This document shows, piece after piece, positions 13,501-61,933 of a stretch of 64,000 bases of DNA. The notes below the pieces were generated by a model, which was given only the letters and a program-made list of their open reading frames with translations, did no database searches and was not told where the DNA came from. The position numbers and the translations under genes are program-made. Location of the stretch: NCBI GenBank assembly GCA_046293175.1, contig JBKBPM010000001.1, forward strand, positions 102,891 through 166,890, read 5' to 3'. Each line of letters begins with the position of its first letter. The first letter of the stretch is position 1. The DNA is from Minisyncoccia bacterium. Its GTDB lineage: Bacteria; Patescibacteriota; Minisyncoccia; Phycocordibacterales; UBA918.

Positions 13501-13778
13501 CGTGGCTTATCGATCATAGCTTCTTTATTGTGGCGAGTGCGGGGAGCTAAGTAGGCATCAAGACCAATAATGGGTTTGATGCCTTCTTTGGTACAGGCTT
13601 TATAAAAATCGATAGCACCGTAGAGAGCACCAGCGTCTGTGATAGCAAGCGCATCTTGCCCATCCTCTTTGGCGGCTTTAGCCAGTTCCTTAGGGGTTGG
13701 GAGGGCATTAAGGAGAGAGTAGTGCGAGTGCACATGGAGATGGACGAACTGGGCAGACAGGGGTTTCGGGTCAGACAT
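10521..13778 (-). CDS. dnaE: DNA polymerase III alpha subunit
   Basis: 1085 aa. PHP domain (HLHVHSHYSLLNA), polymerase core (GLLKFDFLGIKNL, YQDDVM) and a C-terminal OB fold. Confidence 0.95.
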   Translation of the reverse strand: MSDPKPLSAQFVHLHVHSHYSLLNALPTPKELAKAAKEDGQDALAITDAGALYGAIDFYKACTKEGIKPIIGLDAYLAPRTRHNKEAMIDKPRSRLVLLAKTFAGYQNLIKLVTLSNLEGFYYKARIDEELIRTYAKDLICIIPSFAGEVVQQFKNENDEKAAERLDWYKSVFGEDCYLEITHHPEIVEHEKWQNKLITLARTTNTPLVAAHDVYYIHPEDRIAREIMVKIQSGGVVDTSGDGQGEEDFSFLTQADMIERFKGTPDAVLNTVKIAEQCTVELEIGTHWYFPDYQIESGKAPDEELQDMAYRGATWRGFDLTKQTEVKERLDYELEVIKHKGYAKYFLVVGDLLREARERGILTTIRGSVAGSLTTYVLGITNVDPLEYQLPFERFLNPERPSAPDIDMDYADNRRDEIIEYAKSKYGEDKVAQIGTFGTMMARAAVRDVARALGHPYSVGDTIAKLIPMGSQGFPMTIKKALEIEPDLQKLYKTNAEAREVIDLAQKIEGRVRHLGVHAAGVVIAPAPLNQFVPIQPDPKTGKYVTQYEMKSVGEDGVGLLKFDFLGIKNLAILADAVKRVKKIHGVAIDIEAIPLDDPKTFAVLASGQTMGLFQLNGSGMTAFLKQLRPTTIHDINAMVALYRPGPMEMIPTYIERKHNPALVTYLDPRLKNILERSYGVITYQDDVMSVARELAGYSWLEADMLRKAMGKKIPEVMAAEKDKLMKGFLEYGKLSPTTAEKLWHLIEPFAAYGFNKAHAASYGRVAYQTAYMKANYPVEYMSAVLTADSGDTDKISEIIHECERMGIEVLPPDINESFADFSVVPGKQTIRFGLTTIKNFGEGISEAIIEERKQNGRFASLQDFLTRVKNRNLNKKSLEALIMVGAFDSMDERGHLLANVDLMLSFNREQVANAESAQDSLFGLGGNSVSNLTLLPAPAASKAEKLIWEKDLLGIYVSGHPLDDYEAEVVKRPRIGTILNAVRNNEEITIVRLKGELVTTGMIVSVRELITKKGDKMAFVVLGDQHDTIEMVAFPSTYTEQKELFVPGQCVAIKGKLTIRNDEPSIAIDRVKALIPIASTESKS

Positions 13779-25475: not shown

Positions 25476-25680
25476 GCTATTGTTATTTAGGAATACAAAA
25501 ATGCCATTAATCCAGGCTCAAATAATTGCTGATATTCAAGGCGGCGAGGAAAAACATCATAAAACGTACGTATTTACTAAGTTACATGATGGTATGACAA
25601 AGCCAACAAAGAAGATAAGTGATTAGTGGATGGCTGGAGCTATTGACCAAATGACTGGTTTCTGCTACTCTTTCGCCACT

Positions 25681-26148
25681 ATGTTAATGATGCGTTTAAA
25701 GCGCGTAGGCCGCAAAAACAACCCAAGCTACCGTATTGTAGTCGTTGATAAGCGTACGAGCGTAAAAAGTAACAAAACTGTCGACCTCCTTGGCTCATAC
25801 GACCCAAAGCTCGGCCGTATTTCTATTAATGGTGATAAGGCTAAGCACTGGCTAGCTCACGGTGTTAAGCCATCAGTTACCGTGTACAATATGCTCGTCT
25901 CAGAGAAGATTGTCGACGGCAAGAAAAAGAATGCTTTGCCAAAAAAGTCACCAATCATTGACGAGGCGAAGCTCAAGGCTGAAGCCGAAGCTAAGGCTGC
26001 CGCTGAAAAAGCTGAAGCTGATGCTAAAGCAGCCGCTGAAGCTGCTAAAAAGGCTGAAGAAGAAGCGTCTGCCGTCCCAGCACCAGAGGTTGAAACACCA
26101 GTTGAGGCACCGGCTGAAACTCCAGTCGAAGAAGCAAAGGCTGAATAA
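25681..26148 (+). CDS. rpsP: 30S ribosomal protein S16 with a C-terminal Ala/Lys/Glu-rich tail
   Basis: MLMMRLKRVGRKNNPSYRIVVVDKRTS...LLGSYDP matches S16. The tail reads EAKLKAEAEAKAAAEKAEADAKAAAEAAKKAEEE. Start adjusted to an internal Met. Confidence 0.85.
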   Translation: MLMMRLKRVGRKNNPSYRIVVVDKRTSVKSNKTVDLLGSYDPKLGRISINGDKAKHWLAHGVKPSVTVYNMLVSEKIVDGKKKNALPKKSPIIDEAKLKAEAEAKAAAEKAEADAKAAAEAAKKAEEEASAVPAPEVETPVEAPAETPVEEAKAE

Positions 26149-28172: not shown

Positions 28173-31100
28173 ATGAAGTTAAAGTACGAAGACTACGCCT
28201 CAGTTGGTGCGATGGAGCAAAAGACCTTTGCCATCTCACCAGCGCCAATGATTGAAGTGCCGGACCTCATCGAACCACAACGCGATTCGTTTAAGTGGTT
28301 TGTCGAGACAGCGCTTAAGGAGATTTTTACCGAATTTTCTCCAATCACCGACTACTCAGAAAAGAAGTTTGAACTCCGCTTCAAGAAGTACGAGCTTGGT
28401 GAAGCCAAGTGTACTCCTGAGTATGCTAAGGAAAACAAGCTTACCTACGATGCACCGCTTCGTGCCCAGGTGATTTTGAAAAACAAGACTTTTGAATCTG
28501 AGAAGGATCAAGAGATGTTCCTCGCTGATATGCCGATCATGACCGAAAACGGTACCTTCATCATCAATGGTGTGGAGCGTGTTATCGTGCCACAACTCGC
28601 GCGTAGTTACGGTATTTTCTTTACTGCCAACGAAGTAAAGGGTCGCACCCTCTTTGGTGCGAAGATTATCCCAGCCCGTGGTGCTTGGGTAGAAATCGAA
28701 TCAGATGCTGACGGTGTGATTTACGTCAAAATCGATCGTAAGAAGAAGTTTCCAATCTCATCACTGCTCCGTGTCCTTGGTCTTGAGAAAGATAAGGAGA
28801 TTATTGACCTCATGAAGGGAGTAGAGCGTGGTGAAGAATACATGAAGGCAACTATAGCCAAGGATGGAGCGAAGACCACGGATGATTCGTTTATCGAAAT
28901 CTATAAGCGTCTGCGTGATGGTGATCTCGCGACAGTAGAAAACGCCCGTGAATTCGTTCGTTCACTTTTTGCGCCAGAACGATATGACCTTTCAGAAATT
29001 GGTCGTCACCACTTCAATGAGCGGTACGGTCTTCCAACTGATGCAAAGGCGACTGCGGTCCGCACCGTGTCTATCGAGGACATGAAGCTGATCTTGAAGA
29101 ACATCATTGAGATGAATCATGATCCTTTGGCGATGCCAGACGACATCGACCACCTCGGTTTCCGTCGAGTACGCTACTTTGGTGAAATGCTCCAACAGCG
29201 TGTCCGTGTTGGTATGACTCGCATGAAGCGAAACATTCAGGATCGTATGTCAACCATTGAAGCCGAAACCTCACTCCCAATGCAGATCTTGAATCCTCGT
29301 CCACTCCAGGCCGCTATTAAGGAGTTCTTCAGTACGAACCAACTCTCACAATTCTCTCAGCAGCAAAATAATCTCGCTGAAATCGAGCACCTCCGCACAC
29401 TTTCAGCGCTTGGCCCCGGTGGTCTTACCCGTGAACGAGCCGGTTTTGAAGTGCGTGACGTACACACCTCACACTATGGGCGACTTTGTCCAATTCATAC
29501 TCCAGAAGGTCCAAACATCGGTCTTATCTTGCGTCTTTCAATGTACGCCAAGGTTAACCGCTTTGGTATCATCGAAACCCCATACGTGAAGGTAGAAAAG
29601 GGTCGTGTCACTGGTGAAGTGGTATACATGAATGCGCACGAAGAAGAGAAGTACACCATTGCACATGCAGCTATCGAACTCGATAAAGATGGCAAGATTA
29701 AAGACAGGTTCGTTGACGCGCGAAAGCGCGGGGACGCACTCACAGTAAAGCGAGAGGATGTTGAGTATATGGACGTCGCAACCAACCAAGGTTTCTCAAT
29801 TGCAACCTCAATGATTCCATTCCTTAACCACGATGACGCCAACCGTACCCTCATGGGTTCTAACATGCAGAAGCAGGCCACTCCGTGTCTCATCACTGAG
29901 GCGCCGATTGTGGCGACCGGCGTAGAAGGTGTTGCTGCTCGTGACAGTGGACGGGTGGTGTACGCTCTGGAAGCTGGTGAAGTTGTTGAATGTGATGCCA
30001 ATCACATCGTGGTGAAGAACAAAGAAGGAAAGAAGAAGGAGTACCCACTGACGACCCTCCAGCGCACTAACGACTTCTCTGCTTTTTACCACCGTCCAGC
30101 GGTAACGCTTGGTGATAAGGTAAAGCGTGGCGATCTCCTTGCTGATACGACTTCAACTGATCAGGGACAGCTTGCTGTAGGGCAAAACGCTCTTGTGGCC
30201 TTTATGTCATGGAATGGTGCAAACTACGAAGACGCGATTGTTATCTCTGAACGTCTCGTGAAAAATAGTAAGTTTGCGAGCATTCACCTCGATGAGCTCG
30301 AAGTATCGGTTCGTGATACGAAGCTTGGACCAGAGGTTACTACCCCAGACATTCCAAACGTCAGTGAGTTAAAACTCCGCAACCTCGATGAAAACGGTAT
30401 CATTCGCATCGGTGCTGAAGTCCGTCCGGGCGACATTCTTGTTGGTAAGGTAACGCCAAAGGGTGAAACCCAGCTCACGCCAGAGGAACGACTACTGCGC
30501 AGTATCTTTGGTGAAAAGGCCAAGGATGTGAAAGATACCTCACTTCGTCTTGAGGCGGGCAAGCGTGGACGTGTAATCGGCGTCAAAGTATTCTCACGTG
30601 AGAATGGTGATCAGCTCGAAAGTGGTGTGATCAAGCGAATCCACGTGACTGTTGCTCAGATACGTAATGTATCAGTGGGAGACAAGCTCGCTGGACGTCA
30701 CGGTAACAAGGGCGTTATTTCTCGCATCTTGCCAGAAGAAGATATGCCGTACACCGAAGATGGTCGTCCAATTGATATTCTCCTTACACCACTTGGTGTG
30801 CCATCACGTATGAACCTCGGTCAGATTCTTGAGCTTCACCTTGGTATGGCCGCTGGTACCCTCGGCTATCAAGCCGTTGTGCCTCCATTTGCCGGAGCAA
30901 ATGAAAACCATGTGAAAGCAGAGCTCAAGGCTGCCGGATTCCCTGAAGATGGTAAGATCCAGCTCCGTGATGGGCGTACGGGTGAACGGTTCGCCCAGAA
31001 GACTGCGGTTGGTATCATGTATATCCTCAAGCTTCACCACATGGTGGAAGACAAAATCCACATGCGTTCGATTGGTCCGTACTCACTTATTACCCAGCAG

Positions 31101-31412
31101 CCGCTTGGTGGTAAGGCGCAGATTGGTGGTCAGCGCTTTGGAGAAATGGAAGTGTGGGCACTCCTTGGCTATGGTGCTGCTCACACCCTGCGCGAAATGC
31201 TTACTATCAAGTCTGACGACATTGTCGGTCGTTCGGCCGCCTTTGACGCGATTGTTCGTGGTGAAAAGATTCCGCATCCACATACACCAGCCGCGTTTAA
31301 CGTGCTCGTGAATCAGCTCCGTGGTCTCTCACTCGATGTAAAGCTCGAGAAGGAAGAAGGAGAAGCGCGACCACGCCGCAGTCGAGACGAGTCAATTTAT
31401 GAGACCAATTAA
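28173..31412 (+). CDS. rpoB: DNA-directed RNA polymerase subunit beta
   Basis: 1079 aa with canonical beta-subunit motifs (GRHGNKGV, NMQRQA-like, rifampicin cluster regions). Confidence 0.97.
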   Translation: MKLKYEDYASVGAMEQKTFAISPAPMIEVPDLIEPQRDSFKWFVETALKEIFTEFSPITDYSEKKFELRFKKYELGEAKCTPEYAKENKLTYDAPLRAQVILKNKTFESEKDQEMFLADMPIMTENGTFIINGVERVIVPQLARSYGIFFTANEVKGRTLFGAKIIPARGAWVEIESDADGVIYVKIDRKKKFPISSLLRVLGLEKDKEIIDLMKGVERGEEYMKATIAKDGAKTTDDSFIEIYKRLRDGDLATVENAREFVRSLFAPERYDLSEIGRHHFNERYGLPTDAKATAVRTVSIEDMKLILKNIIEMNHDPLAMPDDIDHLGFRRVRYFGEMLQQRVRVGMTRMKRNIQDRMSTIEAETSLPMQILNPRPLQAAIKEFFSTNQLSQFSQQQNNLAEIEHLRTLSALGPGGLTRERAGFEVRDVHTSHYGRLCPIHTPEGPNIGLILRLSMYAKVNRFGIIETPYVKVEKGRVTGEVVYMNAHEEEKYTIAHAAIELDKDGKIKDRFVDARKRGDALTVKREDVEYMDVATNQGFSIATSMIPFLNHDDANRTLMGSNMQKQATPCLITEAPIVATGVEGVAARDSGRVVYALEAGEVVECDANHIVVKNKEGKKKEYPLTTLQRTNDFSAFYHRPAVTLGDKVKRGDLLADTTSTDQGQLAVGQNALVAFMSWNGANYEDAIVISERLVKNSKFASIHLDELEVSVRDTKLGPEVTTPDIPNVSELKLRNLDENGIIRIGAEVRPGDILVGKVTPKGETQLTPEERLLRSIFGEKAKDVKDTSLRLEAGKRGRVIGVKVFSRENGDQLESGVIKRIHVTVAQIRNVSVGDKLAGRHGNKGVISRILPEEDMPYTEDGRPIDILLTPLGVPSRMNLGQILELHLGMAAGTLGYQAVVPPFAGANENHVKAELKAAGFPEDGKIQLRDGRTGERFAQKTAVGIMYILKLHHMVEDKIHMRSIGPYSLITQQPLGGKAQIGGQRFGEMEVWALLGYGAAHTLREMLTIKSDDIVGRSAAFDAIVRGEKIPHPHTPAAFNVLVNQLRGLSLDVKLEKEEGEARPRRSRDESIYETN

Positions 31413-31427
31413 TCTTTTGTTCTGAAT

Positions 31428-34400
31428 ATGTCTACATTTTCACCAAAGAAGCCGGCCCTCACGCCAAACCAGTTCACAGAGATTGGTCTCAAGCTCGCCT
31501 CACCAGAAACCATTCTTGAATGGTCATACGGCGAGGTGACTAAACCAGAAACCATCAACTACCGCACCCAGCGTCCAGAAAAGCATGGTCTGTTCGACGA
31601 GCGTATCTTTGGACCGGTAGAAGACTACGAATGTAGTTGTAAGAAGTACCGCGGTATTCGCTATAAGGGAATTGTTTGTGAGAAGTGTGGCGTTGAAATC
31701 ACTCGCGCTATCGTGCGGCGTGAACGGATGGGTCACATCGAACTCTGTGTACCAGTGTCACACATCTGGTTTCTCCGTGGTGTGCCAAGTCGTATTGCAC
31801 TCCTGACTGGTATCACTGCGTCTGCTATCGAGAAGGTAGTGTACTTTGCCGGGTATATTGTAACCAAAGTACGTGAGGATGAACGCTCACGTCTCCTTAA
31901 GGAACTTGATACTGAGTTTAAGGTTAAGTACAAGGAACTTCAGAACGAAGATGCTCGTGAGGCACTCAAGGCTCGCATGGAAGATATGAAACGCGAGATT
32001 GAAGGTGTCGCGGTTGGAACAGTACTTGATGAAACAACCTTCCACAAGTTCTCAATAAAGTACTCGACACTTTTTGAGGCGAAGATTGGTGCTGAATCAA
32101 TTTACGAACTCTTTAAGAACCTCGACCTTAATAAACTCCAGGCACAGCTCGAAGGTGAGCGCGAAAAGGCAGGTGCCATGGAGCGAGCGAAGCTCGATAA
32201 GCGTCTCTCACTCGTGAAGGGGATGATCCATGCCGGCGTGAAGCCTGAGTGGATGTTCCTCACTCGTATTCCAGTGATTCCGCCAGCGATTCGTCCAATG
32301 GTAGCACTCGAAGGTGGTCGTCATGCCTCTTCTGACCTCAACGACCTCTACCGTCGCGTGATCAACCGAAACAATCGTTTAAAGAAGCTTATTGATATTA
32401 TGGCACCAGACGTTATCTTGCGTAACGAAAAGCGTATTCTCCAGGAAGCGGTGGATGCTCTTATCGATAACTCGATTCGTCACGGCAATGCTGCCTACTC
32501 AGCGCTTGGTCAGGCGCAGCGTCGTCCACTGAAGTCTCTCTCAGACTACCTCAAGAGTAAGCAAGGATATTTCCGCCAGAACCTCCTTGGTAAGCGTGTC
32601 GACTACTCAGGACGTTCAGTGATTGTGATTGGTCCAGACCTCGCGCTTGACCAGTGTGGTCTGCCGAAGCACATGGCCCTTGAACTCTTCCGTCCATTTG
32701 TGATTGCTGAGCTCCTCAAGCAGGAACTCGCGTACAACATCCGTGGTGCAGGTCGTCTTATCGAAGACGGAGTGCCAGAGGTATGGGCAATTCTTGAAAA
32801 TATCATCAAGAACAAGCATGTACTTCTTAACCGTGCACCGACGCTCCACCGTCAAGGTATTCAGGCGTTTCGTCCGGTCCTTATTGAAGGTAACGCTATC
32901 CAGGTACACCCACTCGTTTGTCGTGCGTTTAACGCTGACTTTGACGGTGACCAGATGGCGGTACACGTACCACTTGGTGAAGAAGCCCAGATGGAAGCCC
33001 AAGAGATTATTTCTGCGAACAAGAATATTCTCAAGCCTGGTTCAAGTGAGCCGGTAGTTTCAGAAAAACTTCTCGATCTCGCGCTTGGTGCCTACTGGAT
33101 GACTAAAGAAGTCCCAGGAGCACTTGGTGAGGGTAAGTTCTTCTCGTCACCAAACGATGCGATCAACGCGTTTGACTACGGCATTATCGATTTCCGCGCC
33201 AAGGTGAAAGTCCTTGCTACGTCAACCGAGAAGTATCAGCAGTTTGAAGGGAAGGTGTTTGAGACTACCGTTGGTCGTCTTCTCTTCAACTCAGTACTGC
33301 CAAGTGATCACGCCTTCGTGAACACTCAGGTGACGCAGAAGATGCTCTTTAAGGTCATTATCGACATCATCGACGAGCGTGGACCAGAAGCGGTGCCAGC
33401 CATTGTCGACAAACTCAAGAAGCTTGGTTTCAAGTATGCAACGGTGTCAGGTACAACTTGGGGCATTGATGAAGTTAAAGTGCCGGAAGGCAAGGCAAAA
33501 ATCATCGAAGAATCTCGTGCCGAAGAACAGAAGGTATTTGCCTTCTATAACGAAGGACTTATCTCGCGTGACGAACGTCGTCGGATGATTGTTGAAATTT
33601 GGCACCGTGCCAAGACTCGTCTTGAAAAGCTCCTTCCTGAAACGCTTGACCACAACGGTTCAGCTTTCGAAATGTGGGACTCTGGTGCTCGAGGTTCACT
33701 TGGACAAATTGCACAGATGGCGGGTATGAAGGGTCTTATCGTGAACACCCGAGGTGAAACTCTCGAGTTCCCAATCCTTTCTTCTATGAAGGAAGGTATG
33801 ACGCCACTGGAGTACTTCAACACGACCCACGGTTCACGTAAGGGTCTTGCCGACACCGCCTTGCAGACTGCGAAGGCTGGCTACCTCACCCGTCGTCTCT
33901 TCGTAGTTGCTCAGGATGCGATTGTGACCGAAGAAGACTGTAAGACGAAGGAAGGAACTCGTATCAGCCGCATTAGTGCTTCAGGTATCGAGATTGCTTT
34001 CAGTAAAGCGATTAAAGGTCGTATTCTCGCCGAGGATGCAGTTGATAGCAAGGGTGCGGTGATTTTCCCGAAGGGACACTTACTCTCACGTCTGGATGCG
34101 ATTGCGGTTGAAGAATCAACTTGTAGCGAAGTGATCGTACGTTCACCAATGACCTGTAAGACACTGCGTGGTGTCTGTCAGAAGTGTTACGGTATTGACC
34201 TTACCACGAACAAGCTTGTTGATATCGGAGAGGCGGTTGGTACCGTGGCAGCCCAAGCGATTGGTGAACCAGGTACCCAGCTCACGATGAACACAAAACA
34301 CGCAGGTGGAGCGGCGTCAGCGGGAGGAGACGTGACCTCAGGTCTTCCACGTGTAGAAGAAGTCTTTGAAAAGCGGGCACCAAAGATTCCGGCCGTGGTC

Positions 34401-35090
34401 TCAAAGTGTGAGGGTGTCGTCGTGGACATTCGTCGCGATGGTCGCGAATCAGTGATTGTGGTTGCTCCAGATATGGGCGCCAAAGGTGCACCAAAGAAGA
34501 AGGAAAACATCGAATATGTAGTGCCATACCGGCGTGTGGTAACGGTTAGTAAGGGTGAGACGGTCCGGGCTGGTCAGATTATGACCGACGGTTCGGCACT
34601 CCTCCCTGAACTCTTCAAGTTTGGCGGTCAAGAAGTGGCTCAGGAATACATCATTTCTGAAGTAAACAAAATCTACGAGCTCCAGGGTGTGACGATTGCG
34701 CGCAAGCACATCGAACTCATCGTGAAGCAGATGATGTCACGCGTGAAGGTGACTGCTCCAGGTGATAGTCACTTCACGGTTGGGGACGTGGTTGAAGAAT
34801 GGATCTTCATTGATACAAACAACAAGCTCAAGGAAGAAGGGAAGGAGAGTGCTAAGGCCGAACGCCTTATCCTCGGTATCACCGAGACCTCGCTCTCTCG
34901 TAAGAGCTTCCTTTCCGCGGCCTCATTCCAGAATACCACTCGCGTACTTATCAACGCTGCCGTAAAGGGTAGTAGCGATAACCTCGCTGGTCTCATGGAA
35001 AACGTGATCATTGGTAAGTTGATTCCAGCGGGATCAGGATTTAAGGGGTCACGCAAGCACACAATGATCGAATCACTCAAGCAGGAGTAG
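31428..35090 (+). CDS. rpoC: DNA-directed RNA polymerase subunit beta'
   Basis: 1220 aa. Zinc-binding CxxC..CxxC, NADFDGD catalytic motif, trigger loop and bridge helix regions. Confidence 0.97.
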
Positions 35091-35238
35091 TCGGCTTCCA
35101 AAACGCACGCATCTGCTTTGTTGGTCGGCAAAAATATTGTTCAATGTGCAATCAGCACACCTCACAATATTTTCCACCGCCCGCCTCGCATCTCCATACG
35201 TTTTGAAACCCTCCGGTAGAGGTAACTGATACAACAAA

Positions 35239-35272
35239 AGCCGGCCCCTTCGGGGCCGGCTTTTGTTGTATT
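35239..35272 (+). terminator. Rho-independent terminator after rpoC
   Basis: aaaagccggccccttcggggccggcttttgttg. Confidence 0.8.
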
Positions 35273-35319
35273 AAAAAAGTAGACCCCCGACCCAGTATTG
35301 CCGGGTCGGGGGGTCGCAG

Positions 35320-35427
35320 TCAGAACTTGCGTCCTGCCTGCTCTTCGTCGGTGATGGGTTGGTTTACGTCCCGCCACATCTTGAGTTCGCGGCGGTACCA
35401 CGAAAGCAGTGCTTGCAGAAATTTCAT
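35320..35427 (-). CDS. Small ORF (35 aa), hypothetical
   Basis: MKFLQALLSWYRRELKMWRDVNQPITDEEQAGRKF. RBS ggaggcg upstream. Its own GC-rich terminator hairpin lies at 35282-35316 (gacccccgacc...ggtcgggggg). Not in the ORF track because it is under 60 aa. Confidence 0.3.
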   Translation of the reverse strand: MKFLQALLSWYRRELKMWRDVNQPITDEEQAGRKF

Positions 35428-35602
35428 TTCGCCTCCATTGCTGCGATAATTATACACATAATAGCGGTTATGTCAATACTACGCGGATGGTTGGATTCAG
35501 GTTCTGGTCGTTGATAGTAAGGCACATGGTAGGGAAGTGGAAAACATAGAACGACCCCCGTGCGCGAAGCGGCGGGGGGTCGTGGGGTGAGGCTTTTCGA
35601 CC

Positions 35603-35776
35603 TCATTCTTGGGGCTTGTTGATGCCCATATGTTCCGCGATAGCCTCGATTTTTTCCGCCATGGTCTTCACATATTTCAGGGTCTCGTAGGCGACCGGGA
35701 TGAAGACGATAATGAAGATAATCAAGGCTGATTTCACAAGGTTACCAAAACCCTGATTTGAACGATGCGACGACAT
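35603..35776 (-). CDS. Small membrane protein (57 aa), hypothetical
   Basis: MSSHRSNQGFGNLVKSALIIFIIVFIPVAYETLKYVKTMAEKIEAIAEHMGINKPQE. RBS gggag. Downstream hairpin cgacccccg...cggggggtcg at 35540-35575. Confidence 0.35.
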   Translation of the reverse strand: MSSHRSNQGFGNLVKSALIIFIIVFIPVAYETLKYVKTMAEKIEAIAEHMGINKPQE

Positions 35777-35899
35777 GCAGTGTGCTCCCGTACTGATTTA
35801 TTATATAATATCACAAAAATATGTATAAGTCAATATATCTATAAAAAAGTGATTTTGGCAATGAAAAACCCCGCCATTTTCAGGTGGGGTAAGGTTCTC

Positions 35900-36560
35900 G
35901 GGCGACGGGGCAGGTATTAGCCGTTTTTGGCCAAGATGGGGCGCCGAATCACGTTGGCCTGCATCCAGCAACCCGCCACGAGTTCTGGAGCCGATAGTTC
36001 CCCCGGATGGAGAGTCAAATCATAGTTGCCCCCGGGCGTCATTAGCGTCAGGGCGATTGATGCTGTTTTTGCCCACTGCGTCACACGGTACCGAAGTCGA
36101 TCTCCTGGCCAGTACCGTCGGAGATCTTTATCGACGTGCCGGCCCTGTAACAGGACAGGCCGGTGGCATTGAAGACTTCCAGGAGCGATGTCGAGTACTC
36201 GAAACGACGGTTGAGTTTCTGCTGGCAGGCCTGATTAATTCTTCGGCCGACTGGCCTTTCTGCTCGCTTGAACGAGCGAACTCGCCAATCACCCCATTTC
36301 GTTTCTGATCCGGATGCCCCCTTCATTGGTGTCCGCCGCCGTCAACCGTCCCGGCCCAGCGATCGCATGATCCGGGGAATGCCAAAAGTAGAGCATCCCT
36401 CCGGTTGCAGTGCAATCGAAGCTGAGCTTCTCTTTCGGCGTTTCGGCGATTGCCGCGTTGGGAAGAGGGTAGAGAGAAGAATAAGTAGGTACCGCATCGG
36501 TAGTCCATTCTGGACAAGTTGGCTACCGTGGACTATATATTACAAACGTCAATGAGTCAA
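35900..36560. pseudogene. GC-rich (about 58%) segment with only fragmented ORFs; probable decayed foreign gene
   Basis: The longest clean reading is a minus-strand frame of about 105 aa ending at 35919 (...HRPVLLQGRHVDKDLRRYWPGDRLRYRVTQWAKTASIALTLMTPGGNYDLTLHPGELSAPELVAGCWMQANVIRRPILAKNG*). It has no start codon. The other frames are broken. Confidence 0.3.
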
Positions 36561-36593
36561 TAGCTCACCAAAAAGTGTTGAATCGGGTATACT

Positions 36594-38360
36594 GTGGCTA
36601 CTTTTATTCTTATGGCCTCGGGTGACTCAGTACAACAAATCAAAGATCGTCTCAACATCCTCGATATAGTCGGGCAATACGTTGAACTCCAGCGAGCCGG
36701 AAAGCACTTCAAAGGTCGCTGTCCTTTTCATAATGAAAAGTCACCGAGCTTCCACGTCTCTCCAGATCGCGGGACGTACCACTGCTTTGGCTGTGGTGTC
36801 GGAGGTGATATCTTCTCCTTTGTACAGGCGATTGATGGAGTGGAGTTCAAGGAAGCACTGAAGACTCTCGCACAAAAGGCCGGTGTCGAACTCGTACCCG
36901 AAAATCCTGAGCGGCGCACAGAGCGTGATACCCTCTACAGTATCCTCGAAGCCGCGACCGCCTTTTATGAAGCCGAACTTGCAAAGAACAGCGAAGCATT
37001 GGCTTATCTTGAAAAGCGGGGAGTAAGCAAAGAGACTATCAAAAAGTGGCGTATCGGTTTTGCACCTGGTCCACCTGTCGGTGGTTGGCGAGAAGTGAAG
37101 AATCATCTGAATACCATTGGACACCCGGATGCGCTCATTATCAAAGCGGGCTTAGCGAAAACTGCTGATCAGGGCAAGGAGCCATTTGATGTATTTCGAG
37201 ACCGGATTATGTTCCCGCTCCGTGATGCCAATGGAAAAGTGGTAGCGTTCTCTGGTCGCATCCTTCATCCTGACGATAAGGCACCGAAGTACGTGAATAG
37301 TCCCGAGACCGAGCTTTTCCATAAATCAGATTTGCTCTATGGGTATGATTTTGCAAAGCATCATATCAGGCAGTTACCATTTTGGCTTTTGGTCGAAGGA
37401 CAGTTTGATGTGGTGATGAGTCACCAATGTGGCTATGCTACGGCAGTAGCTGTATCTGGCACTGCTTTGACCGTACATCACGTACAGCAGCTCGAGCGGC
37501 TCTCTCGTAATGTAGTCTTGGGACTTGATACCGACCAGGCGGGGATTAATGCGATGAAGAAGTCAGCCGATATTATGCTCAGGCGGGGACTGGATGTAAA
37601 AGTAGCGCGCTTTGCCGAAGGAGCCGACCCAGCTGATATGGTGCAAAAGGATCTCGCTGGTTTTAAGACGGCTATCAAGGACTCGGTCCATATCATTGAG
37701 TTTTTGCTTGCACACTTGAGACGTGATATCACGGACGAGCGCGCCTACAAACTCAAAGTACGAGAAGAAGTGATTCCATTTGTAACCCTCATTCCCAATC
37801 GCATTGACCAAGAGCACTTTGAAGGGGTGATAGCGGAAGCGCTCGGTACGACCAAAGATGCAATTCACTTTGAAGTACTGCGACTGATAGACACACAAGC
37901 CAAAACACCAACTGCGAGCTTTGAAAAACCAAAGACACCAAATATGCCACCAGCTGAAACTCGCGACCAGCGCGAGAAGACCCTCGCGTATCTCGTCGCT
38001 GCACTGGCTATTGTGGATGAGCATGAAGCCAATGTCATCCGCCGCTGCCTCAGACAAATACATGATACACAATTCGAGGATGTATTAAGTAGTGTTGATC
38101 AATTGCTTGTCTCAAAACTCACCTTCTCACTTGAGCGAGAATTTGATGCAGTAGCAGGGAAGGTACGGCGGGATGAAATCCTCCACAAGCTCAATCGCTA
38201 CCGTGACCTCGTTTGCAAAGAGGCGATTCAACAACAACGTGCGAAGCTTGGTACAGTATCGAGTGACGAGGAAGCCGTCCTACTGCAGACGATTGCGCAT
38301 TATACGAATCAACTTCGGCGACCTCCTTATGGTGACGACATCTTCTTAAAAACATCGTAA
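36594..38360 (+). CDS. dnaG: DNA primase
   Basis: Zinc ribbon (CPFHNEKSPSFHVSPDRGTYHCFGCGVGGD), RNA polymerase domain and Toprim (LLVEGQFDVV, LGLDTDQAG). Confidence 0.9.
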   Translation: MATFILMASGDSVQQIKDRLNILDIVGQYVELQRAGKHFKGRCPFHNEKSPSFHVSPDRGTYHCFGCGVGGDIFSFVQAIDGVEFKEALKTLAQKAGVELVPENPERRTERDTLYSILEAATAFYEAELAKNSEALAYLEKRGVSKETIKKWRIGFAPGPPVGGWREVKNHLNTIGHPDALIIKAGLAKTADQGKEPFDVFRDRIMFPLRDANGKVVAFSGRILHPDDKAPKYVNSPETELFHKSDLLYGYDFAKHHIRQLPFWLLVEGQFDVVMSHQCGYATAVAVSGTALTVHHVQQLERLSRNVVLGLDTDQAGINAMKKSADIMLRRGLDVKVARFAEGADPADMVQKDLAGFKTAIKDSVHIIEFLLAHLRRDITDERAYKLKVREEVIPFVTLIPNRIDQEHFEGVIAEALGTTKDAIHFEVLRLIDTQAKTPTASFEKPKTPNMPPAETRDQREKTLAYLVAALAIVDEHEANVIRRCLRQIHDTQFEDVLSSVDQLLVSKLTFSLEREFDAVAGKVRRDEILHKLNRYRDLVCKEAIQQQRAKLGTVSSDEEAVLLQTIAHYTNQLRRPPYGDDIFLKTS

Positions 38361-38545
38361 CGCCCGTCCAAAAGCCCTAATGCTTCGTTGTATTTCGCTC
38401 AGAAACATTCATCGTATAGCTAATTCGCTTCATATTTCTTCACTCGTACACTTTGCCTGATGACTTTTTGACCAGGCTCTGGATGAGGTGTCTGAAACTT
38501 AGGAATATAACGGGGGACTGGACAATTTCCCATTTTTCTGTATAG

Positions 38546-39967
38546 TTGTCCACATCTATGGCAACTGCCAAAAAAGTAGCGAAAAAAGCCAATACACCAA
38601 AGAAAAAAGCGGCAAAAGCCGTCAAGCCATTCACTAAAAAGAAAGTAATCAAAGGAGCAAAAAAGACTGTCAAAAAAGTCGCCGCTCCAAAGAAGAACGT
38701 CGTCAAGCCCACCAAAAAAGCTATTTCAAAAAAACTAACCAAAAAGGTCATCAAACCCGCTAAGAAAGCAGCAGTCAAAAAAGTCGTGCCAAAAAAGATG
38801 AAGAAGCCAGTAACTAAAAAAGTCGCCGCTAAAAAAGTGGTAGCAAAAAAAGTCGCTCCAATCAAAGTACTCCCTGTGAAGGCGCCGACAAAGAGTGAAA
38901 AGATTTTAGAACTTAAAGCCGCCGAACTCATGAAGAGTGGTCGCGAGCGTGGTTATGTAACATACGACGAGCTCTTACGCTCTTTTCCAGAAATTGAAAA
39001 GGATATCATGTTCCTCGATGAACTCTACGAGCGCTTTTCGAATGCTGGGGTTGATGTGCTGAAGAGTGGTGGTATGCTTGGTGCCGATCCAGCCGAAGAG
39101 CTTTTGGCTCAAAAGAATGCCTTTCGTCGTAATGATTCAAGTTATGACTCAATCCAGATGTACCTCCGTGAAATTGGTCAGTATCCACTCCTCTCCGCAC
39201 ACGAAGAGCGTACCCTCGCAAAGCGTATCGTTGATGGTGACGAAGAAGCACGTAACCTCCTTGCGCGTGCGAACCTCCGTCTTGTGGTTTCAATTGCGAA
39301 GAAGTACGTCGGACGTAGTCCAGACCTTACCCTCCTTGACTTGATTCAAGAAGGGAATCTTGGTCTCTTTAAAGCAGTTGATAAATTCGACTTCACCAAG
39401 GGCTTTAAGTTCTCAACCTACGCTACCTGGTGGATTCGCCAGGCGATTACCCGTGCGCTTGCTGACCAGTCTCGAACTATCCGTATCCCGGTACACATGG
39501 TAGAAACCATGGCGAAGTACAAACAGGTAGCTCGTCGTCTTTCCCAGGACCTCGGCCGTGACCCAATGCCAGAAGAAATCGCTACCGAAATGGGTGTTGA
39601 AGTTGAAAAGATTTACCAAATTGAAAAAATCAGTCAGGACACCATTTCACTCGAACTCCCAATTGGTGACGAAGATGATCATTCTCGCCTCTCAGACTTT
39701 ATTGCTGATGATAAGATTATCGCTCCTGACCAAGAAGTATCTCACAGTATCCTGACCGATCAGATTACCGAAATCCTCGATACCCTTTCAGAGAAAGAGC
39801 GCAAGATTCTCGAGATGCGTCATGGACTTCTCGATGGTACCTACCATACCCTTGAAGAAGTAGGAAAGGAGTTTGGAGTAACCCGCGAACGTATCCGCCA
39901 GATCGAAGCCAAGGCACTCGAAAAAATCCGCAGCCATGAGAAGGCTCGTCGTCTCAAGAGTTACTAA
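38546..39967 (+). CDS. rpoD: Primary sigma factor (sigma-70 family) with a lysine-rich, histone-H1-like N-terminal extension
   Basis: Regions 1.2-4.2 present ([57 protein letters not shown]). The first 115 aa are KKxA/KKV repeats. Confidence 0.9.
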
Positions 39968-39981
39968 TATCAAATATGAAG

Positions 39982-40020
39982 AAAGGGCGGCCCTGCTATA
40001 GGGTCGCCCTTTTTTTCTTC
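39982..40020. terminator. Bidirectional terminator after rpoD
   Basis: aaagggcggccctgctatagggtcgccctttttttc. Confidence 0.7.
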
Positions 40021-40511
40021 TTGCTGCGCTGCTGGCGACTTTTCCGAGGGCGGTCAAAGGCTATATATCCGCGTGTTAGAGTGATGAGCACTGATTGTGG
40101 TAGTCCGTCCTTGGTAACGTAGACAGATTCGATAGTGAGAAGCTTCTCATGCGCCCTCCAGGCGGAGGGTGGTCCATCGACCGGTCTCCCTCTTGCGGTA
40201 AAGCGCTGCTCGCTGGTGAGGAGTTTGGCGTCGGGGTGCAGCCATTTGATTGGTCCTCTGCGTCCCCAGCCCTTGTCCTCTTTGGCGGTGAGGTGTCCCC
40301 AGAGCAAAATAGTCTCGTCATCGAGGAGTCTCTGTAGCACTGCTCTGAAGAGATTTTCTTCTATGACTGGAATAATCGCCGCCAGCAGTGTATCGAAAGC
40401 GAGGCCCCGATAGCAGATGCCTTTTACACCAGGTATTGGGGCACGACGGAGACGACGAATCATGTCGACTACCAGCTGCGCGGCACGCGCATCAGGAGAT
40501 GTGTCTGTCAT
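39996..40511 (-). CDS. GC-rich ORF resembling a degenerate calcineurin-like metallophosphoesterase; possibly a pseudogene
   Basis: 171 aa. DDETILLWGHLTAKEDKGWGRRGP aligns loosely to phosphoesterase motif II (DxLxLxGDxVDRG) with the metal ligands substituted. No GNHE. The 3' end runs into the rpoD terminator. GC about 56%. Confidence 0.25.
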   Translation of the reverse strand: MTDTSPDARAAQLVVDMIRRLRRAPIPGVKGICYRGLAFDTLLAAIIPVIEENLFRAVLQRLLDDETILLWGHLTAKEDKGWGRRGPIKWLHPDAKLLTSEQRFTARGRPVDGPPSAWRAHEKLLTIESVYVTKDGLPQSVLITLTRGYIAFDRPRKSRQQRSKKKKRATL

Positions 40512-40657: not shown

Positions 40658-41431
40658 ATGGACGTTCCTTCACAGAGTTGGCACATACTCACTATTACGC
40701 TGTATTCAGCGTTAGTGACTTTGGCTGCGGTCATGTTTGCATGGCCGGTGCCCTTGGCACTCTTTTTTCTCTGTGGTGTGCCGCTTATTGTTCTTCTCTA
40801 TGAGACAGATTTACCACTCGGTCGACTACTTGGTCTCGTGGGTATTTTGTCGGTCGTAGTGGTGGTGCTTGATGCGGTTGCTCATACCACAGGGAGTTGG
40901 TATACGGTTGTTGGTTCCCCGTGGCGATTCTTGGGAGTGACGTTTGAGTCGGCACTCTTCGCTTTTATACATACCTTGTACTTCCTTGTTCTGTATGAGT
41001 TCATGTTTGATGACACCAAAGTCAGAGGAATAGCCCGCCGGGGGGTGGCTGGTATGGCTGCTGTGATTGCTACCCTCGTCATAGCCGGTTTTTATCTCTT
41101 TTCGGTTTGGTTGGTAACATTTGCTTTTTTGTGGATGATTGTCCTGTTGTTTGTGCTGGTGCTCGCTCTTATGTGGCTCGCACATCCAGGGAACTCGACA
41201 CACTTGGTCAACAAAGCCTTTCTCTTTGGTATTCTTGTCTATCCACTGTCGTTACTCTTTGAGTTGGTTGCCCAGGCCGGGGAAGTCAGAATATTTGCAT
41301 TCACCAACGAGTATCTGTTTATGGTACCCCTTGCTCAGTATGCTGTTCCTGTTGAAGAACTTCTCCTCCTCATCCTGTGGCCAACATTACTCGTATTTCT
41401 CTACGAGTGTTTCATTGATGATGGGATATAA
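40658..41431 (+). CDS. Polytopic integral membrane protein, hypothetical
   Basis: 257 aa with about 7 predicted TM helices. PVEELLLL-type motif faintly reminiscent of lycopene-cyclase-domain proteins. Confidence 0.55.
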   Translation: MDVPSQSWHILTITLYSALVTLAAVMFAWPVPLALFFLCGVPLIVLLYETDLPLGRLLGLVGILSVVVVVLDAVAHTTGSWYTVVGSPWRFLGVTFESALFAFIHTLYFLVLYEFMFDDTKVRGIARRGVAGMAAVIATLVIAGFYLFSVWLVTFAFLWMIVLLFVLVLALMWLAHPGNSTHLVNKAFLFGILVYPLSLLFELVAQAGEVRIFAFTNEYLFMVPLAQYAVPVEELLLLILWPTLLVFLYECFIDDGI

Positions 41432-59165: not shown

Positions 59166-59495
59166 ATGCCAACTAAAACCAAAACCACTGCTACACCAAA
59201 AAAGGCAGCAGTCAAACCAAAAAGCAAGGCTGCACCAGTTGTTGTAGTACCAGCAGAACTAGCCTTCTGGACTATTAACGGTGTTGTGTATCACTCGCTT
59301 TCTGAGTTAGCGGATGGGTTTGCTACTATGGAAGGACGAGTATATCGGTACCATGCCGACAAAGACCATCAAGATTTTGCCGTCTGGGTAAGTAGTGTCT
59401 TTATGAATAAACAACTTTCAACACTTCTCAAAAAAGCCGCTACACCGAAAGCTGCCGAGAAAGTCATTCGTACCCATCTTAAAGCTTCCAAGTAA
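59166..59495 (+). CDS. Small protein with a lysine-rich histone-like N-terminus, hypothetical
   Basis: MPTKTKTTATPKKAAVKPKSKAAPVVV followed by a globular part. Embedded in the glucan locus. Confidence 0.5.
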   Translation: MPTKTKTTATPKKAAVKPKSKAAPVVVVPAELAFWTINGVVYHSLSELADGFATMEGRVYRYHADKDHQDFAVWVSSVFMNKQLSTLLKKAATPKAAEKVIRTHLKASK

Positions 59496-61482: not shown

Positions 61483-61516
61483 ATAAAATACTCCATTTAA
61501 ATGGAGTATTTTATCG
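61483..61516. promoter_or_regulatory. 34-bp perfect palindrome overlapping the 3' end of the TrpR-like gene
   Basis: gataaaATACTCCATTTAAATGGAGTATtttatc. Confidence 0.6.
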
Positions 61517-61933
61517 CTTCCGTTTTGCTTTAATAATATAGTTTCGGCGTGGCATGATGCCACCCACAGTGAGAATTGAGTCGATTAATATGAGCAAATC
61601 AGTGTAGTTCTTTTTGCTTTTAGTTAATGATTCGATGATGTTAGAAAACTCTTTTCTCTCATACCTCTCAAATAATTTTGCTACGGTAGTTTCGCTCACT
61701 TTGAGCCGCTGTGCAATTGAGTAGCAAGATCTCCCTTCATTGAGCATTAATACAATTGCTAATCTTTTAGCGAAGATTTCTTTTTCTTCATACCCAAATA
61801 GTTCTTCATAAAACATTCGCGCTTGATTTCCATTTAACTTTCCAAGTACATCAGTAAATTGCGAGATAAGATGTTCGCGTTGAACCTCTGAGAGACGATC
61901 TTTGGATAACCTCATACCAACAATATACTCCAT
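61511..61933 (-). CDS. TrpR-family (YerC/YecD-like) helix-turn-helix protein
   Basis: 140 aa. ...LMLNEGRSCYSIAQRLKVSETTVAKL... is a TrpR/YerC-type HTH. The first ATG lies inside a palindrome; the real start may be the Met at 61915 (MRLSKDRL). Confidence 0.7.
   Translation of the reverse strand: MEYIVGMRLSKDRLSEVQREHLISQFTDVLGKLNGNQARMFYEELFGYEEKEIFAKRLAIVLMLNEGRSCYSIAQRLKVSETTVAKLFERYERKEFSNIIESLTKSKKNYTDLLILIDSILTVGGIMPRRNYIIKAKRKR

Follow-up and report, generated by a model that had tools for sequence, protein, structure and literature searches.

We found that the primary sigma factor encoded in the window (the whole 64,000-nucleotide stretch of DNA analyzed here) begins with a lysine-rich tail that stands ahead of region 1.1. 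From the comparison of sequences across related genomes, we concluded that this tail is a translated, added N-terminal extension, present lineage-wide in sigma A of the Paceibacteria/Parcubacteria, and that the selection keeping it acts on its charge density and length and not on its sequence. Textbook models of holoenzyme loading rest on an acidic, DNA-mimicking sigma N terminus. Here, in a CPR class with very small genomes, few regulators, and mRNAs whose leaders appear to be short or absent, a long polycationic arm has become fixed on sigma A, and the same class has lost most of the acidity of sigma region 1.1.

The rpoD/sigA gene runs on the forward strand from an ATG at 38558 to a stop codon ending at 39967 and encodes 469 aa. 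The ORF listing confirmed an ORF at 38546 to 39967 on the same strand, which also includes a TTG at 38546. The gene, its domains, and its flanks are laid out as follows.

36594 to 38360, forward strand: dnaG (primase), directly 5' of rpoD, with Pfam domains Zn_ribbon_DnaG, DNAG_N, and Toprim.
38558 to 38890, forward strand: polycationic N-terminal extension, predicted to be disordered (aa 1 to 111; 43 K, no R, no D or E, net charge +43).
38891 to 39073, forward strand: sigma region 1.1, aa about 112 to 172, helical and weakly acidic (PF03979, E = 3.7e-9, 36.9 bits).
39146 to 39247, forward strand: sigma region 1.2 (PF00140, E = 2.5e-15).
39260 to 39478, forward strand: sigma region 2, for -10 recognition and core binding (PF04542, E = 1.3e-21).
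39503 to 39733, forward strand: sigma region 3 (PF04539, E = 5e-21).
39776 to 39931, forward strand: sigma region 4, for -35 recognition (PF04545, E = 8.9e-18).
39978 to 40016, forward strand: intrinsic-terminator-like hairpin with an 18-bp stem and a T run, just 3' of the rpoD stop codon (39965 to 39967).

As judged from its domains, the product is a complete primary sigma factor of the B. subtilis type, with regions 1.1, 1.2, 2, 3, and 4. The matches to PF00140, PF04542, PF04539, and PF04545 were all far over their gathering cutoffs, and the match to PF03979 (cutoff, 22.5 bits) spanned aa 126 to 176 in the 473-aa form of the protein. To our knowledge, region 1.1 is restricted to group 1 sigmas. 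In a phmmer search, aa 120 to 469 matched residues 16 to 369 of B. subtilis SigA (7ckq_F), and regions 2 to 4 were 50 to 60% identical to PDB SigA/RpoD chains, with E values down to 1e-106. The best NCBIfam model was RpoD PRK09210, whose positions 7 to 368 of 370 aligned with aa 116 to 473. Its score of 436.8 bits fell below the curated cutoff of 572, as did that of TIGR02393 (RpoD_Cterm; 346.3 bits, cutoff 354). RpoD equivalog scores that rank first but stay under the cutoff are expected in a divergent CPR lineage; we judged that they weaken automatic naming and leave the domain-based assignment intact. The initial annotation had called the product a primary sigma factor, and the Pfam and NCBIfam domains, together with the position directly after dnaG, bear this out. 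The dnaG-rpoD order is the classical arrangement; two related loci, L084 and L085, likewise have DnaG upstream. Neither an Rfam nor a tRNA scan of the whole 64-kb window gave a match.

Where translation begins decides whether the tail is part of the protein. Two features bear on this.

38519 to 38546, forward strand: promoter-like site TGGACA-N16-TATAGT, found by consensus scan with 10/12 matches.
38558 to 38560, forward strand: start codon ATG (MATAKK..., 469 aa), the most likely start and that of NCBI protein P0001.

The true start is almost certainly the ATG at 38558, since most of the best 120 homologues begin with MA(T/V)xKK or a close variant. The -10 hexamer TATAGT (38541 to 38546) ends only 11 nt 5' of this ATG, and the 5' UTR should thus be very short, making the mRNA near-leaderless. 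Of 77 related loci, 23 have a -35 plus -10 pair at the equivalent place; 31 have a -10-like box 9 to 12 nt ahead of the ATG, and 13 have the exact arrangement TGTATAGT-N10-12-ATG. Two other starts were rejected: TTG 38546 overlaps the -10 box, and homologues begin at MATAKK; M81 is not conserved, with Val in its place in L081 and L083. Shine-Dalgarno sequences are absent at most genes in the window. Many genes there look leaderless.

The initial annotation had raised a start 3' of the repeats with its own ribosome-binding site. According to this reading, the A-rich tract serves as a 5' UTR and the tail is untranslated, and the true start is M125 (469-aa form; codon 38930), which is a nearly invariant Met. 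At least one public annotation (Lloydbacteria, P0271, 360 aa) also begins 3' of the tail. We checked M125 and found no Shine-Dalgarno sequence before it, and M125 falls within helix 1 of region 1.1. The conserved promoter lies 11 nt 5' of ATG 38558 instead. The tail frame is open in 77 of 77 loci, with about 5 stops in each alternative frame, and the tail also shows the dN/dS of about 0.2 and the replacement of K by R with rising GC described below. On these comparisons, we regard the untranslated reading as effectively refuted. Gene callers do sometimes truncate the tail, as in the Lloydbacteria entry, whose 360 aa compare with 454 aa for other proteins in its cluster. CPR annotations are thus an unreliable guide to where sigma starts and how long it is.

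The initial annotation had proposed alignment with related taxa as a check on lineage specificity. We found a basic tail in all 120 best database homologues; in the 117 where it could be delimited, it was 86 to 123 aa long with 30 to 43% K. It was likewise present in every one of the related GTDB species genomes open to analysis, 77 in all (Kaiser-, Adler-, Taylor-, and Nomurabacteria and others), among which core identity goes down to 71%. In these species, the tails ranged from 47 to 162 aa (89 ± 20 aa), with 38.1% K+R and 1.8% D+E, and their charge density was constant at +0.37 ± 0.06 per residue. Between close relatives, the tails differed by whole-codon gaps that kept the reading frame throughout. 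Tail dN/dS in close relatives was 0.15 to 0.22, compared with 0.007 to 0.046 for the core, which indicates purifying selection on the tail. The share of arginine, R/(K+R), climbed with genome GC (Spearman rho = 0.55, P = 1.6e-7), and the tail of L053, with 65% GC, had 23% R and 11% K. The exchange of K for R in GC-rich genomes while charge density stays constant indicates selection on protein charge, not on A-rich mRNA.

Codon usage in the tail raises the question of whether it is a tolerated low-complexity expansion without a specific function, produced by A-rich codon slippage at the gene's 5' end. It would then be kept only because it does no harm, or because a 5' coding region that is unstructured and rich in A aids translation of a near-leaderless mRNA. 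AAA accounts for 70% of Lys codons in the tail, compared with 27% of those in the core and 16% of those in rpoB/rpoC, which lie at 28173 to 35090, and the bias has the same direction in 65 of 77 loci. Rather than selection on the protein alone, this bias could reflect growth by mutation or slippage or a role at the mRNA level. The poor conservation of tail sequence, its wide range of lengths, and the many leaderless-looking genes of the window are also consistent with such an expansion. In contrast, purifying selection and the presence of the tail in every species, even at the lowest core identity, argue against it. So do the near exclusion of acidic residues, when one transition would turn K into E, and the constant charge density, with R taking over from K as A-richness disappears in GC-rich genomes. 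We therefore consider a tolerated expansion improbable.

Close relatives also share a well-conserved tail/core junction, which is circumstantially consistent with the tail being a pro-sequence, that is, with an inactive precursor from which a protease removes the basic N terminus to activate sigma. N-terminal pro-sequences are a known mechanism in sigma factors, as in B. subtilis pro-sigma E and pro-sigma K, but the known ones are 20 to 30 aa long, lack polycationic character, and belong to sporulation sigmas instead of the housekeeping sigma. The tail here is 111 aa long and polycationic, and no protease gene adjoins rpoD. Moreover, a mere inhibitory peptide would not be expected to be under selection for charge density along about 90 aa. 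We find a pro-sequence very unlikely.

The A-rich Lys codons have a further consequence on the opposite strand.

38440 to 38931, reverse strand: Phe-rich antisense ORF (163 aa, 21% Phe), a compositional artifact of the A-rich Lys codons and no gene.

This ORF exists as first described and, as then suspected, is a spurious by-product of composition. Codon pairs that give antisense stops (Tyr/His/Gln-type codon junctions) are missing from the tail, which is why the antisense frame across it is open in 60 of 77 related loci. The selection signal at this locus is carried by the sense frame.

We next describe the tail itself. The initial annotation had given it 115 aa, which is its length from the TTG; those residues contain 43 K and no D or E (16% A, 16% V, 9% P; net +43), so that its lysine-rich character stands, but from ATG 38558 it is 111 aa long. 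The remainder of sigma has a net charge of -10, with acidic patches at aa 141 to 170 and 341 to 410 (473-aa numbering). A disorder and charge profile had been suggested as a check: AlphaFold2 gave aa 1 to 109 a pLDDT of about 30 and no secondary structure, which agrees with a disordered tail, and the net charge of the tail is +43. Lysines show a loose periodicity of 4 to 5 residues (KK-x2-3), and three (S/T/A/V)PKK motifs occur, at aa 13, 43, and 77. The described array of AKK/KKV repeats did not hold up: at the DNA level, we found one weak tandem repeat (15-bp unit, 2.9 copies, 38814 to 38856) and rejected a true tandem array. The region is a compositionally biased tract. Its composition (39% K, 16% A, 9% P) is consistent with an H1-type lysine-rich segment, and to that extent the reported likeness to H1 and Hc1 is sound. 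It does not extend to homology. A Pfam search with the tail alone (E ≤ 10) gave only a meaningless match to Thioredoxin_14 (E = 0.97), and a search of PDB chains at the same limit gave none; by profile, the tail belongs to neither H1/H5 nor Hc1, and we rejected homology to H1/Hc1 or to a solved structure.

Other genes in the window had been credited with similar tails. In a window-wide charge scan, sigma alone among real genes reached a net charge of at least +11 per 30 aa, and we rejected basic tails as a proteome-wide habit in the window. The small protein at 59166 to 59495 does have a basic N terminus, but it is short, at only about 24 aa. The S16 tail is rich in A, E, and K, as stated, but is not basic, and no L32 with an Ala/Lys/Glu-rich tail was found within the window.

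In canonical sigma-70 proteins (E. coli sigma 70, B. subtilis SigA), the N terminus is an acidic DNA mimic and autoinhibitor. Region 1.1 fills the holoenzyme's channel for downstream DNA until open-complex formation drives it out, and together with the sigma N terminus it governs DNA loading by the holoenzyme. The tail had been thought to replace region 1.1. We found instead that a domain homologous to canonical region 1.1 follows the tail, as indicated by the PF03979 match, by an alignment with B. subtilis SigA residues 16 to 74, and by the AlphaFold2 fold, which has helices at 112 to 131, 136 to 147, and 150 to 162 (pLDDT 67 to 77). It differs from its canonical counterpart in charge. Region 1.1 plus the linker has a net charge of -5, compared with -15 for the aligned stretch of B. 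subtilis. Similarly, tailed sigmas averaged -5.0 and tail-less sigmas -14.2 over this stretch (Mann-Whitney P = 5e-4, a test that ignores phylogeny; the tailed representatives are probably one clade). Where the canonical N terminus is acidic, a region of -5 here stands behind a tail of +43, so the N-terminal third is strongly cationic overall. The lowered acidity suggests that the DNA-mimic and autoinhibitory role of the sigma N terminus is weakened in this lineage.

By analogy with other lysine-rich tails, we somewhat favor the idea that the tail serves as a nonspecific polyanion or DNA tether on sigma and the holoenzyme. According to this model, the tail would attach electrostatically and without specificity to the DNA backbone, like the lysine-rich tails of H1, HupB/TopA, and DdbA. 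It is anchored to region 1.1, a module of the downstream-DNA channel, and, being excluded from that positively charged channel, should project out of its mouth. There it would hold sigma and the holoenzyme on the nucleoid, help the one-dimensional search for promoters, and stabilize promoter complexes through additional DNA contacts independent of sequence. Free B. subtilis sigma A can itself bind promoter DNA unaided (PMC3035472). If the tail binds DNA, then promoter search, open-complex kinetics, and sigma-core exchange would be altered across a major uncultivated radiation. The tailed sigma also offers a simple recombinant system for testing the role of basic N-terminal sigma tails.

Because a basic disordered tail will bind RNA, polyphosphate, and acidic proteins as it would any polyanion, DNA is only the default guess for the ligand. 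The same composition would fit a regulatory arm that binds some polyanion other than DNA and so controls sigma availability, not promoter search. Such an arm might fold back on acidic sigma surfaces, causing autoinhibition or compaction, or bind an acidic partner, an anti-sigma-like factor, or RNA/polyphosphate. Consistently with this, the sigma core is acidic and has the patches noted above, and the disordered N-terminal domain of M. smegmatis sigma A binds a partner protein, MoaB2 (PMC11656743). The basic 60 aa of that domain, however, are specifically uninvolved in MoaB2 binding (PMC11656743). In addition, we saw no candidate partner gene in the neighborhood of rpoD, and region 1.1, which would be the obvious acidic partner within the molecule, has lost acidity in tailed sigmas instead of gaining it. 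We consider this arm unlikely.

A bolder extension of the DNA-tether model would be that the logic of the sigma N terminus is inverted in Paceibacteria. With a tail of +30 to +45 and a de-acidified region 1.1 in place of an acidic DNA mimic that holds free sigma away from DNA, free sigma A might be nucleoid bound and histone-like, giving sigma-first promoter recognition and doubling as a chromosome organizer. The DNA-resident sigma would recruit core as TBP/TFB do with archaeal/eukaryotic polymerases, and the most abundant transcription factor would also organize the chromosome in tiny, regulator-poor cells. We offer this extension as speculation and think it rather unlikely.

Searching the literature for a lysine-rich sigma N terminus in CPR/Patescibacteria, or for HrdB, we found nothing specific; the only precedents were mycobacterial sigma A and DdbA. 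With the H1 C-terminal domain, Chlamydia Hc1, HupB, HupS, and TopA, the tail shares about 35 to 40% K together with A, P, and T/S, as well as disorder, which is predicted here; by analogy, electrostatic, sequence-independent DNA binding is to be expected of it. Unlike H1 and Hc1, to which it is not homologous, the tail has no winged-helix globular domain and is unusually rich in Val (16%). H1-like tails are carried by nucleoid proteins or a topoisomerase, whereas this one is on a sigma factor. In actinobacterial TopA, lysine repeats are reported to be the source of processivity (PMC7398561). In Streptomyces DdbA, N-terminal H1-like lysine repeats bind DNA and compact it in vitro, and a DksA-like domain potentially modulates RNA polymerase (PMC3643593). 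DdbA, in contrast, is a secondary-channel factor, not a sigma, and has defined pentapeptide repeats in place of loose KK-x2-3 spacing.

The other precedent is on a sigma factor. In M. smegmatis, sigma A starts with a disordered domain that carries mostly positive charges over its first 60 aa and is believed to lie close to where the DNA channel opens (PMC11656743). Both are lineage-specific N-terminal additions to a primary-type sigma, start basic, and are disordered, by prediction in the case of the tail here. In mycobacteria, though, about 60 basic aa are followed by a strongly acidic disordered stretch, whereas the tail here runs for 111 aa with no D or E. By CD/NMR, the mycobacterial domain of 160 aa is also disordered throughout, and it stands where a folded region 1.1 would be. 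Here, the basic stretch leads into a region 1.1 that is predicted to be folded and, with its linker, has a net charge of -5, so that it does not conform to the actinobacterial type. The two tails have no sequence homology and are probably of independent origin. We concluded that the Paceibacteria tail is a lineage-wide variant of a feature already seen in mycobacteria.

We confirmed the ORF at 38546..39967 (+) as a real primary sigma factor gene in which sigma-70 regions r1_1, r1_2, r2, r3, and r4 are all present. The top NCBIfam model was PRK09210, the B. subtilis-type RpoD, whose positions 7-368 of 370 matched amino acids 116-473 (numbered from TTG 38546) with 436.8 bits, under the curated cutoff of 572. 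NCBI holds an identical 469-aa protein labelled "Candidatus Paceibacteria bacterium" (MAG), which places the organism in the CPR (Patescibacteria). The start and the neighborhood of the gene involve the following features:

28173-35090, rpoB and rpoC
36594-38360, dnaG, just 5' of the sigma gene
38519-38546, promoter-like sequence TGGACA-N16-TATAGT

The initial annotation had started the protein at TTG 38546, which overlaps the -10 hexamer; ATG 38558 lies 11 nt 3' of the hexamer. A similar -35 and -10 pair was found at 23 of 77 related loci, a -10-like box lies 9 to 12 nt 5' of the ATG at 31 of the 77, and homologues mostly begin with MA(T/V)xKK or a near variant. Taken together, these sequence features place the start codon at ATG 38558 and the earlier start 12 nt off. 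With the usual distance from the -10 element to the transcription start, the sigma mRNA leader would be only a few nucleotides. Shine-Dalgarno sequences are absent at most genes of the window, and many have a TATACT/TATAAT-like box 6 to 8 nt 5' of the ATG, which suggests that leaderless or very-short-leader mRNAs are pervasive in this genome. Examples of such boxes stand upstream of the ATGs at

10521-13778 (-)
14286
43660
53162
55017
61511-61933 (-)

Several other observations concern the surroundings of the gene. The rpoC-dnaG gap (35091-36593, about 1.5 kb) has no ORF above 95 aa, and scans found neither a tRNA nor an Rfam family reaching its gathering score; sub-threshold hairpin-type hits at 35205-35320 are probably the rpoC terminator. 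An apparently noncoding gap of this size is odd in a compact CPR genome. On the other side, ORFs 39996-40511 (-) and 40658-41431 (+), neither with a Pfam family, flank the rpoD terminator; the latter resembles a multipass membrane protein. GC reaches 57% at 40000-40450, above its surroundings.

As first noticed, the N terminus is strongly basic. The tail (115 aa from TTG, 111 from ATG) contains 43 Lys, no Arg, and no Asp or Glu, for a net charge of +43, with 16% Ala, 16% Val, 9% Pro, and 8% Thr. The other 358 residues have a net charge of -10. We found only a single weak tandem repeat in the tail DNA (15-bp unit, 2.9 copies, 38814-38856), and thus the tail is a biased-composition tract rather than the repeat array first described. 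Its basic residues are loosely periodic, every 4 to 5 residues, and it holds three (S/T/A/V)PKK motifs. The tail alone matched neither Pfam families nor PDB chains, so "H1-like" describes composition and not homology.

Four independent lines of sequence evidence show that the tail is translated. In all 77 GTDB species genomes recovered with the sigma protein, the frame is open from an ATG through a basic tail of 47 to 162 aa, and the two alternative frames have about 5 stops apiece. Against five close relatives, dN/dS was 0.15 to 0.22 for the tail and 0.007 to 0.046 for the core; in the least saturated pairs, the tail gave dS 0.34 and dN 0.069 (window and L083) and dS 0.49 and dN 0.10 (window and L081). 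Tail gaps between close relatives are whole codons and never break the reading frame. That the tail is merely an untranslated leader, with translation beginning 3' of it, is therefore barely credible.

A conserved downstream Met with its own ribosome-binding site had been named as a possible true start. The conserved Met is M125 (codon 38930); we found no Shine-Dalgarno sequence upstream of it, it pairs with Thr21 of B. subtilis SigA, inside region 1.1, and it sits in a helix predicted by AlphaFold2 (112-131). M125 was rejected as the start. In public databases, CPR sigma A starts are annotated inconsistently: Lloydbacteria protein P0271 (NCBI/UniRef) has 360 aa and a non-ATG start 3' of the basic tail, and P0121 and P0272, from the same 90% cluster, have 452 to 454 aa, tail included.

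The third line of evidence for translation is that composition is kept across tails and sequence is not (K+R 38.1%, D+E 1.8%, charge density 0.37 ± 0.06 per residue). The fourth is that, with higher GC, Arg takes the place of Lys (Spearman 0.55, p=1.6e-7), as in the L053 tail (GC 65%; 23% R, 11% K), for which selection on protein charge is the only sensible account. At the codon level, the share of AAA among Lys codons goes from 16% in rpoB/rpoC and 27% in the sigma core to 70% in the tail; it is higher in tail than core at 65 of 77 related loci (Wilcoxon p=1e-9). A-runs reach at most 6 to 7 nt, and there are two in-frame A_AAA_AAG heptamers (38659 and 38791), the slippery motif of the dnaX type. 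The AAA bias may be a sign that the tail grew by slippage, or of an effect on translation or on the mRNA. It would suit a functionless low-complexity expansion, possibly with an mRNA-level benefit; given the selection on charge, we regard this as improbable.

The tail is lineage-specific and occurs throughout the 77 genomes. All of the best 120 homologues (439 to 476 aa) have a Lys-rich N terminus, and the tail could be delimited in 117 (86 to 123 aa, 30 to 43% K). The 80 genome loci are labelled Kaiserbacteria, Adlerbacteria, Taylorbacteria, Nomurabacteria, Paceibacteria/Paceibacterota, or Parcubacteria, and Lloydbacteria form one more distant tailed cluster. Unrelated long sigma-70 representatives, among them P0154, P0193, P0216, P0263, and P0264 (537 to 718 aa), have AKK/PAAK-type basic tracts at the start or within, with N-terminal net charges of +29 to +63. 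This indicates that primary sigmas gained cationic N-terminal segments repeatedly and independently.

The tail had been thought to replace region 1.1. We found instead that region 1.1 follows it:

aa 126-176 (473-aa numbering), Pfam Sigma70_r1_1, E=3.7e-9, 36.9 bits, cutoff 22.5

Consistently with this, phmmer against the PDB aligned amino acids 120-469 (469-aa numbering) with residues 16-369 of B. subtilis SigA (7ckq_F), region 1.1 included. We ran AlphaFold2 on an alignment of 67 sequences; in the model, the pLDDT is about 30 over residues 1-109, which show no secondary structure and are predicted to be disordered. Residues 112-170 (pLDDT 67 to 77; helices 112-131, 136-147, and 150-162) are predicted to be the region 1.1 domain, and the rest of the chain folds into the helical domains typical of sigma factors. 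The alignment has little diversity, which keeps confidence in the model as a whole modest (mean pLDDT 57.5). The stretch aligned to SigA 16-116 has a net charge of -5 here and -15 in B. subtilis. We compared the 150 cluster representatives (50% identity) with the highest similarity, of which 74 had region 1.1 aligned; region 1.1 plus linker averaged -5.0 in 20 representatives with a basic extension directly before it and -14.2 in 22 without (Mann-Whitney p=5e-4, phylogeny not corrected for). Region 1.1 is retained but de-acidified.

All of these data taken together show a translated, conserved, charge-selected, predicted-disordered extension before an intact sigma. We infer that it is an electrostatic tether to DNA, and DNA binding is probable; the AAA bias is left unexplained by this model. 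In the E. coli holoenzyme, region 1.1 occupies the channel for downstream DNA, which is positively charged, and gives way when DNA loads. A +43 chain on region 1.1 would be kept out of the channel and point toward incoming DNA, which could raise nonspecific DNA affinity, nucleoid residence, and promoter-complex stability. The same charge might instead bind another polyanion or an acidic partner, or the tail might inhibit its own sigma; we consider this unlikely. A pro-sequence ahead of the intact core is a very improbable reading. The tail is of interest mainly because a large uncultivated class carries it universally and, along with it, has lost acidity in region 1.1.

Two other proteins had been said to carry similar tails:

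25630-26148 (+), ribosomal protein S16 (PF00886, aa 25-82)
59166-59495 (+), 109-aa protein with no Pfam family and a K/A/P/T-rich basic N terminus, MPTKTKTTATPKKAAVKPKSKAAP

S16 does have a C-terminal low-complexity tail (about 70 aa, Ala/Glu/Lys/Pro-rich), but it is mixed to acidic, not basic; its ORF as listed probably begins too far upstream, with a likely start at MLMMRLKR. The small protein is sigma-tail-like in composition, but only over a basic N terminus of about 24 aa.

Our literature search on basic or lysine-rich sigma N termini, limited in coverage, found the tail in CPR bacteria nowhere described. Sigma A is already known to bear disordered extensions at its N terminus in particular lineages. 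The closest described case is the N-domain of M. smegmatis sigma A, which is disordered by CD and NMR, has a mostly positive first 60 aa followed by a strongly acidic region, and is thought to lie near the DNA cleft entrance, its basic part having no assigned role (PMC11656743). Streptomyces DdbA is a functional analogue of the tail: DNA is bound and condensed by its H1-like N-terminal lysine repeats, and its DksA-like domain has the potential to modulate RNAP (PMC3643593). Actinobacterial TopA owes its processivity to lysine repeats (PMC7398561). B. subtilis sigma A, the nearest solved relative of this sigma core, can, when free of core polymerase, bind promoter DNA (PMC3035472).
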